A stretch of DNA of 6,242 nucleotides from Clostridiales bacterium UBA5888. Lineage in GTDB: Bacteria; Bacillota; Clostridia; Oscillospirales; Oscillospiraceae. This document shows positions 607 to 1,647 of this stretch, piece by piece. The position numbers and the translations under genes were made by a program. The stretch covers positions 887 through 7,128 of the forward strand of contig DJEW01000042.1 of assembly GCA_002431965.1 (NCBI GenBank). Direction: 5' to 3'. The first letter of the stretch is position 1; every line of letters starts with the position of its first letter. Under the pieces are notes generated by a model, which did not search any database, was not told the DNA's origin, and saw nothing but the letters and a program-made list of their open reading frames with translations.

Positions 607-1647
607 ATGCTCGAAAAGCTGAAAAGTCTCTCGCAGAAATACGCGGAGATCGAGTACATGCTCTCGCAAAGCGAAGTCTGGGCGGACGCTCAGAAGGCCG
701 CGGCGCTCAGCCGCGAGAAGGCCGAGCTCACCCCTCTGATGGAGGCCTACGAACGCTACGAGGCCTTCCGGCAGGAGGCCGGGAGCGCGGAAGCGCTTCT
801 CTCCGACCCCGAAATGAAAGACCTTGCGCGCGAAACGCTCAGCGAGGCGCGAATCGGTATGGAGCGCACGGCGGAGGAGCTGAAGATCCTCCTGCTGCCG
901 AAGGACCCGGACGACGGGAAAAACGTCATTGTGGAGATCCGCGGCGGCGTCGGCGGAGAGGAAAGCGCTCTCTTTGCCGCCGATCTCTTCCGGATGTACG
1001 AAATGTACGCCGAGCGGAAGGGCTTCTCGGTCGAGATCGTCAACCGCAGCGAGACCGAACTCGGCGGCATCCGGGAGATCGATTTCATCGTCGGCGGCGC
1101 GAACGCCTTTTCGCGCTTCCGGTTTGAAAGCGGCGTGCACCGCGTGCAGCGCGTGCCGGAAACGGAGACGCAGGGCCGCATCCACACGAGCACCTGCACC
1201 GTGGCGGTGCTGCCGGAGCTGGAAGAGACCGAGTTTCATCTGGACCCCGCCGAATTGCAGATCGATACGTTCCGCTCCTCCGGCGCGGGCGGGCAGAAGG
1301 TCAACAAGACCTCCTCCGCCGTGCGTCTGACCCATATCCCCACCGGGATCGTCGTGGCAAGTCAGGTCGAGCGCAGTCATTTTCAGAACCTTGAAAACTG
1401 CAAAAACATGCTGCGCGCACGTCTCGCCGAAATAAAGGAGCGCGAGCATCTTGAAAAGATAAGCGACATAAAGGGCGTACAGATGAAGATAGAATGGGGC
1501 AGCCAGATCCGCTCTTACGTTTTCATGCCGTATCAGCTCGTGAAGGATCACCGCACAAACTACGAAAACGGCAATATCGACAACGTCATGAACGGCGATA
1601 TTGACGGCTTTATAAACGCCTATCTCTCCATGCGCGCCGCCGGCTGA
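607..1647 (+). CDS. prfA: Class-I peptide chain release factor of 346 aa, with an RF1-type N-terminal, decoding and GGQ region and an RF2-like C-terminal domain (see findings)
   Basis: The start is ATG 607, with AGGAGG at 591-596 and a 10-nt spacer. The track ORF start at 475 lies upstream in the promoter region. RF1 hallmarks include [29 protein letters not shown] and [23 protein letters not shown], with the PxT-type tripeptide PET at nt 1156-1164. GGQ lies at nt 1288-1296. The C-terminus [46 protein letters not shown] (nt 1489-1626) is an RF2-family signature. The frame is continuous, with no prfB-style +1 frameshift. The symbol prfA is assigned on the decoding domain only. Confidence 0.88.
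   Translation: [346 protein letters not shown]

Follow-up and report, generated by a model that had tools for sequence, protein, structure and literature searches.

The release-factor ORF at positions 607-1647 of the window, the 6,242-nt stretch of contig DJEW01000042.1 (Clostridiales bacterium UBA5888) analysed here, combines the first two thirds of an RF1 gene with the last third of an RF2 gene. The sequence comparisons indicate, with a probability of about 90%, that it is a de Bruijn-graph misjoin between the prfA and prfB genes, both of them normal, of an Oscillospiraceae bacterium from the human gut. An assembly chimera is favoured because each half matches a canonical locus from an independent assembly at 100% identity and because the join lies inside a 35-nt exact repeat. 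The real organism probably has an ordinary RF1 (356 aa, with PET) and an ordinary unframeshifted RF2 (368 aa, with SPF). The features of the window discussed below are as follows.

1-1313, no strand: prfA-locus segment containing rpsU, the intergenic region and the 5' two thirds of prfA; 0 mismatches to locus L118
170-349, minus strand: rpsU (ribosomal protein S21), a 59-aa ORF belonging to the prfA-side context; the homologue in locus L002 carries PF01165
607-1647, plus strand: chimeric release-factor ORF of 346 aa, with RF1 domains 1 and 2 and the start of domain 3 running in frame into the RF2 part
Within 607-1647: RF2-derived part, comprising the end of domain 3, the switch loop and domain 4
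1156-1164 (aa 184-186), plus strand: PET tripeptide, a PxT-type RF1 stop-codon reader, on the prfA-derived side
1279-1313, plus strand: crossover zone, a 35-nt exact repeat TCCGGCGCGGGCGGGCAGAAGGTCAACAAGACCTC that includes GGQ (1288-1296) and is common to prfA and prfB in the same codon phase
1279-6242, no strand: prfB-locus segment containing the 3' third of prfB, PPIase, ThiF, RarA/MgsA, DUF951 and GIY-YIG; 0 mismatches to locus L009
1686-1713, plus strand: GC-rich terminator-like hairpin ACGGCAGCGGCACGAATGCCGCTGCCGT, 3' of the prfB stop codon, read directly from the sequence
1972-3516, plus strand: PpiC/SurA-type PPIase, the native downstream neighbour of prfB; the exact protein occurs on 21 contigs

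Composition of the release-factor ORF

The ORF has no internal stops and terminates in TGA, the codon that also ends rpsU, the PPIase and DUF951 in the window. With NCBIfam profiles, residues 1-256 scored 346.6 (NF001859) and 343.4 bits (TIGR00019) as RF1 against 215.1 bits (TIGR00020) as RF2. Residues 257-346 reversed this order, with 110.4 bits as RF2 (TIGR00020) against 38.9 (NF001859) and 37.2 bits (TIGR00019) as RF1. Two RF1 traits, the PxT tripeptide in domain 2 and GGQ (aa 228-230), are both present. The switch loop and domain 4 are not of the RF1 type, as judged from the scores of residues 257-346 and from the alignment. Taken as a whole, the hybrid stays below the RF1 cut-off of TIGR00019 (398.0 against 423.25 bits) and barely exceeds that of NF001859 (402.5 against 400). 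It also stays below the RF2 cut-off of TIGR00020 (343.1 against 370) and is without SPF.

The sequence-only reading had described an RF1-type first part and an RF2-type C-terminus on the basis of family signatures. The profile scores confirm this architecture, with all features where they had been placed, and the preference of the C-terminus for RF2 shows that these signatures were right. The reason for the RF2-type C-terminus is that the 3' end of the organism's normal prfB encodes it. Two supposed oddities proved to be ordinary: GGQK is found in both the canonical RF1 and the canonical RF2 of the clade, whose canonical RF2 also reads RSHFQN. In the window the latter lies within ERSHFQN (1369-1389), and the motif WGSQIRSYV follows at 1495-1521. 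In a related, abundant gut population the canonical RF2 has Phe in place of the switch-loop Trp (L103, L104, L112, L132 and 13 other loci).

The ORF was correctly reported to contain no frameshift site of the prfB type, which is explained by the fact that the clade's prfB is unframeshifted, and the 5' part of prfB is outside the window anyway. The need for a UGA-reading RF2, also pointed out by that reading, is met by an intact prfB in other assemblies of the same population. The GC content drops from about 0.65 to about 0.48 past nt 1350. A foreign, lower-GC origin of the C-terminus was considered and rejected, since the GC of native prfB declines towards the 3' end in the same way and the two flanks are alike in GC.

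The two parental loci

Both canonical genes were sought and found intact in other assemblies, prfA in L118 and prfB in L009. Window positions 1-1313 match L118 (ERZ808240 NODE-847, 39 kb, coverage 5x) ungapped and with 0 mismatches, and past the repeat 22 mismatches occur within 1314-1377. The prfA gene of L118 encodes a canonical 356-aa RF1 with PET and is followed by a Sua5/YrdC-CoaE gene. This native RF1 of the same strain reaches 499.7 (TIGR00019) and 498.6 bits with the RF1 profiles. A second contig, L095 (ERZ26858498, 919 nt, coverage 3.4x), covers window positions 505-1313 with 0/809 mismatches.

Most relatives have an extra gene of 0.9-1.5 kb between rpsU and prfA (L002:3338-4206, L001:240-1191, L016, L017 and L020), whose product is Cys-rich, has a signal peptide and gives no Pfam match. 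This gene is absent from the window, where its site would be at 494-520. L118 and L095 have 100% identity to the window at this site, so the absence is genuine.

On the other side, window positions 1279-6242 show 0 mismatches in 4964 nt to L009 (ERZ27300197 k119_233712, 113 kb), and the last mismatches before this match are at 1275 and 1278. The prfB gene of L009 (L009:281-1387) encodes a canonical 368-aa RF2 with RVSPFD, scores 507.3 bits with TIGR00020 and is followed by the same PPIase-ThiF-RarA genes. It is one uninterrupted ORF, and its RF2 is therefore made without a programmed +1 frameshift. Of the six places listed for the exact PPIase, three (L009, L010 and L011) reach upstream, and the gene preceding it in each of them is a canonical RF2 of 368 aa. 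Some strains carry an insertion of about 236 nt that contains more hairpins and is bordered by another copy of the prfB hairpin (L011:1330-1590, L012:1-170). Contigs L013 and L014 begin exactly at window position 1716.

The perfect matches to the prfA locus and to the prfB locus overlap in 1279-1313 only. Mismatches that discriminate against prfB end at 1278, those that discriminate against prfA start at 1314, and the gene context changes exactly there. The window is therefore composed of the prfA locus up to the repeat and the prfB locus from the repeat onwards. The repeat encodes 12 residues and is identical in both genes. Beside it, the two genes differ at 1263, 1267-1269, 1271, 1275 and 1278 on one side and at 1314-1316, 1321, 1323, 1326 and 1327 on the other. 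The change of family had been seen correctly by the sequence-only reading, but its boundary at nt 1375 was misplaced: the true point is 60-100 nt upstream, inside 1279-1313 and across the GGQ codons.

The 35-mer was found on 58 metagenome contigs (L098-L155), within both canonical prfA and canonical prfB genes. Several gut Oscillospiraceae populations have canonical prfA and prfB genes with an identical 35-nt GGQ-coding tract, and both genes encode GGQK, not GGQH. Concerted evolution or gene conversion between prfA and prfB may account for the shared tract and for GGQK in both paralogues.

Searches for the same join

The hybrid appears to be unique to the window. The protein, with either plausible start, is not on record in a collection of 15 billion proteins, in contrast to the neighbouring PPIase with its 21 contigs, and a junction-specific 66-mer gave 0 matches in the metagenome contig collection. 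None of the 54 contigs that were informative on both sides of the 35-mer switches paralogue across it (31 run from RF1 to RF1 and 23 from RF2 to RF2). The best 80 loci from a search of one genome per GTDB species comprise 9 canonical RF1, 71 canonical RF2 and no hybrid. Almost all of these loci are labelled as Oscillospiraceae, Ruminococcaceae or Clostridiales MAGs, which gives the organism its taxonomic place. No reciprocal product, with the 5' part of prfB and the 3' part of prfA, was seen. A literature search for natural RF1/RF2 hybrids returned nothing relevant, and its matches to 'chimera' referred to the UCSF Chimera software.

These results bear on three explanations that the sequence-only reading had offered, of which the assembly chimera is favoured. 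A natural recombinant is not supported, and a third, divergent paralogue is rejected on the grounds of no divergence, no recurrence and no hybrid among the best 80 GTDB loci. The window halves do not diverge at all from the canonical loci, with 0 mismatches over 1313 nt for prfA and over 4964 nt for prfB.

Release-factor mosaics in the databases

The protein search returned dozens of database proteins with an RF1 N-terminus and an RF2 C-terminus. Such a number could speak for a well-established third paralogue among the release factors or for a natural hybrid family of ancient origin, but the segment-wise identities show that these seeming relatives are mosaics built from canonical genes. At the N-terminus they match abundant canonical RF1 clusters (724 and 3060 members) with 100% identity, while their C-terminal donors and break points vary from entry to entry, and we rejected them as a natural family. 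Together with the identity of both window halves to canonical prfA and prfB and the lack of any hybrid in the best 80 GTDB loci, this leaves the paralogue or ancient family with a practically negligible likelihood.

In entries that have a single member on a single contig, the RF1 N-terminus of the window is itself followed by a wide range of C-terminal halves. Its native RF1 cluster (P0011) has 724 members, some of them on contigs longer than 100 kb. Among the partners are RF1 sequences from other lineages, for which the switch falls near aa 120, 180 or 240, as well as at least three types of RF2 (P0001, P0002 and P0003). Break points of the mosaics fall at conserved stretches, and many single-copy mosaics break near GGQ. 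A search with the C-terminal 96 aa recovered true Oscillospiraceae RF2 fragments with SPF and the same C-terminal sequence.

The closest of the mosaics, P0001 on L001, is 94% identical in amino acids to the window, and shared hybrid ancestry was considered for it. This was rejected, as the halves differ in origin. The 5' part of L001 has about 99% identity to the canonical prfA of L002, and its 3' part has only about 80% nt identity to the window, which makes it an independent join with a different RF2 donor. The C-terminal part of P0002 is about 65% identical in amino acids to that of the window. Other odd entries were also found. P0121 (146 aa, on a contig of 5373 nt) begins with an ArfB-like N-terminus and changes to an RF2 C-terminus at GGQ, and P0026, P0028 and P0031 are fusions of 478-570 aa with RF1-like and RF2-like motifs or a CoaE domain. 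These four are probably further assembly or gene-calling artefacts.

One or two strains

The window could also be a chimera between co-occurring strains or species, with prfA from one and prfB from the other, which would still be an assembly artefact. Consistent with two sources, the same N-terminus is found elsewhere with RF2 halves of clearly different donors (L001, P0002), the closest GTDB genomes differ between the two sides (in a comparison with incomplete MAGs), and GC3 is 0.84 on the prfA part against 0.72-0.78 on the prfB side. However, overall GC is similar on both sides, and the contigs L095 (prfA) and L010, L011, L013 and L014 (prfB) have neighbouring ENA analysis accessions and may come from the same study. 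We consider two contributing strains or species possible but somewhat doubtful.

A recurrent join in another species

A hybrid of the same layout, P0096 (RF1 N-terminus, RF2 C-terminus), is found on 15-16 contigs assembled by MEGAHIT and SPAdes, with constant flanks (L003-L008; gene at L003:10001-11053). About 25 near-identical variants of it exist, and the contigs have low coverage (2.5-4x). The number of contigs and the consistency of the flanks were considered as proof of a natural hybrid, but the analysis of gene context showed the same pattern as in the window. Over its first 204 aa, P0096 has 100% identity to a canonical RF1 that is itself abundant (P0345, with 3060 members; P0314, found on an NCBI contig of 194 kb), and it shares its upstream genes (DUF218, flavodoxin) with the canonical prfA of that species. 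Downstream, canonical prfA is followed by Sua5/CoaE (L096/L097:6001-7071), while the P0096 contigs have MatE-ApbE instead. P0096 is thus a join of the window's type, with the prfA locus upstream and a different locus downstream.

The hybrid and the canonical prfA of this species are identical over 143 nt before they diverge. The canonical RF1 (L097:6001-7071, P0314/P0345) carries an RF2-like tract around GGQ, where a typical RF1 has ..SAIR... This tract looks like a natural patch of prfB-to-prfA gene conversion in domain 3. The comparison suggests that the paralogues of this species share a long tract, perhaps through natural gene conversion. The P0096 join may be a recurrent misassembly over that tract or a real structural variant; both are possible.

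Recombination or misassembly

We also weighed a genuine homologous recombination, of very recent date, in which prfA and prfB exchanged across the 35-nt tract. In one form it would be an inversion, giving two reciprocal genes, RF1N-RF2C and RF2N-RF1C, and a cell with both hybrids could be viable. The product in the window would read UAA and UAG through PET and have the switch loop and domain 4 of RF2. If it existed in cells, it would serve as a natural experiment on the way these two elements couple stop-codon reading to peptide release. Recombination is compatible with the identical, in-phase tract in the genuine genes, which is also long enough for rare RecA-mediated exchange, and with the intact ORF. 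It is further compatible with the recurrence of a similar join in another species, and the 15-16 P0096 contigs from different assemblers exceed what is expected of a purely random artefact.

Against it, both halves have zero divergence from parental loci that are intact in other samples, and the hybrid is unique to the window, with 0 occurrences in the protein collection and in the 66-mer, 35-mer and GTDB searches. A recombination of the deletion type would remove the only SPF-type RF2 of an organism that uses TGA, and the reciprocal product of an inversion was not seen. We consider recombination very improbable as the origin of the window's ORF. Equally slight is the chance that the join is a real recombination event and an instance of a structural polymorphism that recurs in gut Oscillospiraceae and that P0096 might also reflect.

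A misjoin during assembly would explain the window in the following way. A short-read de Bruijn-graph assembler working at k of 35 or less would merge prfA and prfB into one node, which has two ways in and two ways out. Where coverage is low or uneven, or where branches have been pruned, a contig could enter this node from prfA and leave it into prfB. The expected product would have rpsU and prfA codons 1-235 joined to prfB from the GGQ codons on, followed by the PPIase and the genes beyond. As both genes contain the repeat in one and the same codon phase, the joined ORF stays open and looks plausible. Misjoining would account for the 100% identity of the halves, the switch of context from rpsU to PPIase, the uniqueness of the hybrid and the frequent contig ends near these genes. 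The parental contigs do have low coverage (3-10x) and often end at or beside these genes.

As the organism appears to have an ordinary RF1 and an ordinary RF2, the hybrid would be of no biological consequence. It is a caution, however, that short-read assemblies can yield in-frame release-factor mosaics at the conserved GGQ-coding tract, and that these enter protein databases as if real. Such mosaics can pass a family cut-off, as with NF001859 here, and resemble domain swaps.

Comparison with known release factors and chimeric contigs

Compared with RF1, residues 1-235 of the hybrid (domain 1, the PCRF domain with PET and the GGQ loop) are genuine RF1, and their DNA is 100% identical to the L118 gene. 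The remaining 111 aa at the C-terminus do not belong to RF1, the genes that follow are those of the prfB locus, and the TIGR00019 score is 398 against 499.7 for the native protein. Compared with the RF2 of Oscillospiraceae, the hybrid has the RF2-type C-terminal region and does not differ from the RF2 of L009 between SGAGGQ and the stop codon, and the genes downstream are identical too, but it is without RF2 domains 1 and 2 and without the SPF motif.

The architecture would be equivalent to that of domain-swap hybrids made in the laboratory, with the decoding region from one factor and the C-terminal part from the other. Ito, Uno and Nakamura (Nature 2000) reportedly found that engineered RF1/RF2 hybrids are active and that their specificity follows the tripeptide region (PxT/SPF). 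By the prediction of that work, the hybrid described here would be specific for UAA and UAG. The laboratory hybrids were engineered, whereas nothing indicates that the hybrid of the window exists in a cell.

The window also resembles the chimeric contigs of short-read metagenomes that arise from repeats shared between paralogues or genomes. In both, the two sides match separate real loci, the join is at an exact repeat of about a typical k-mer length, the gene context switches at that point and the arrangement occurs once. Unlike the usual chimeric contig, in which a gene is broken, the window has its repeat in phase inside two essential paralogues, and the result is an intact and tempting ORF.
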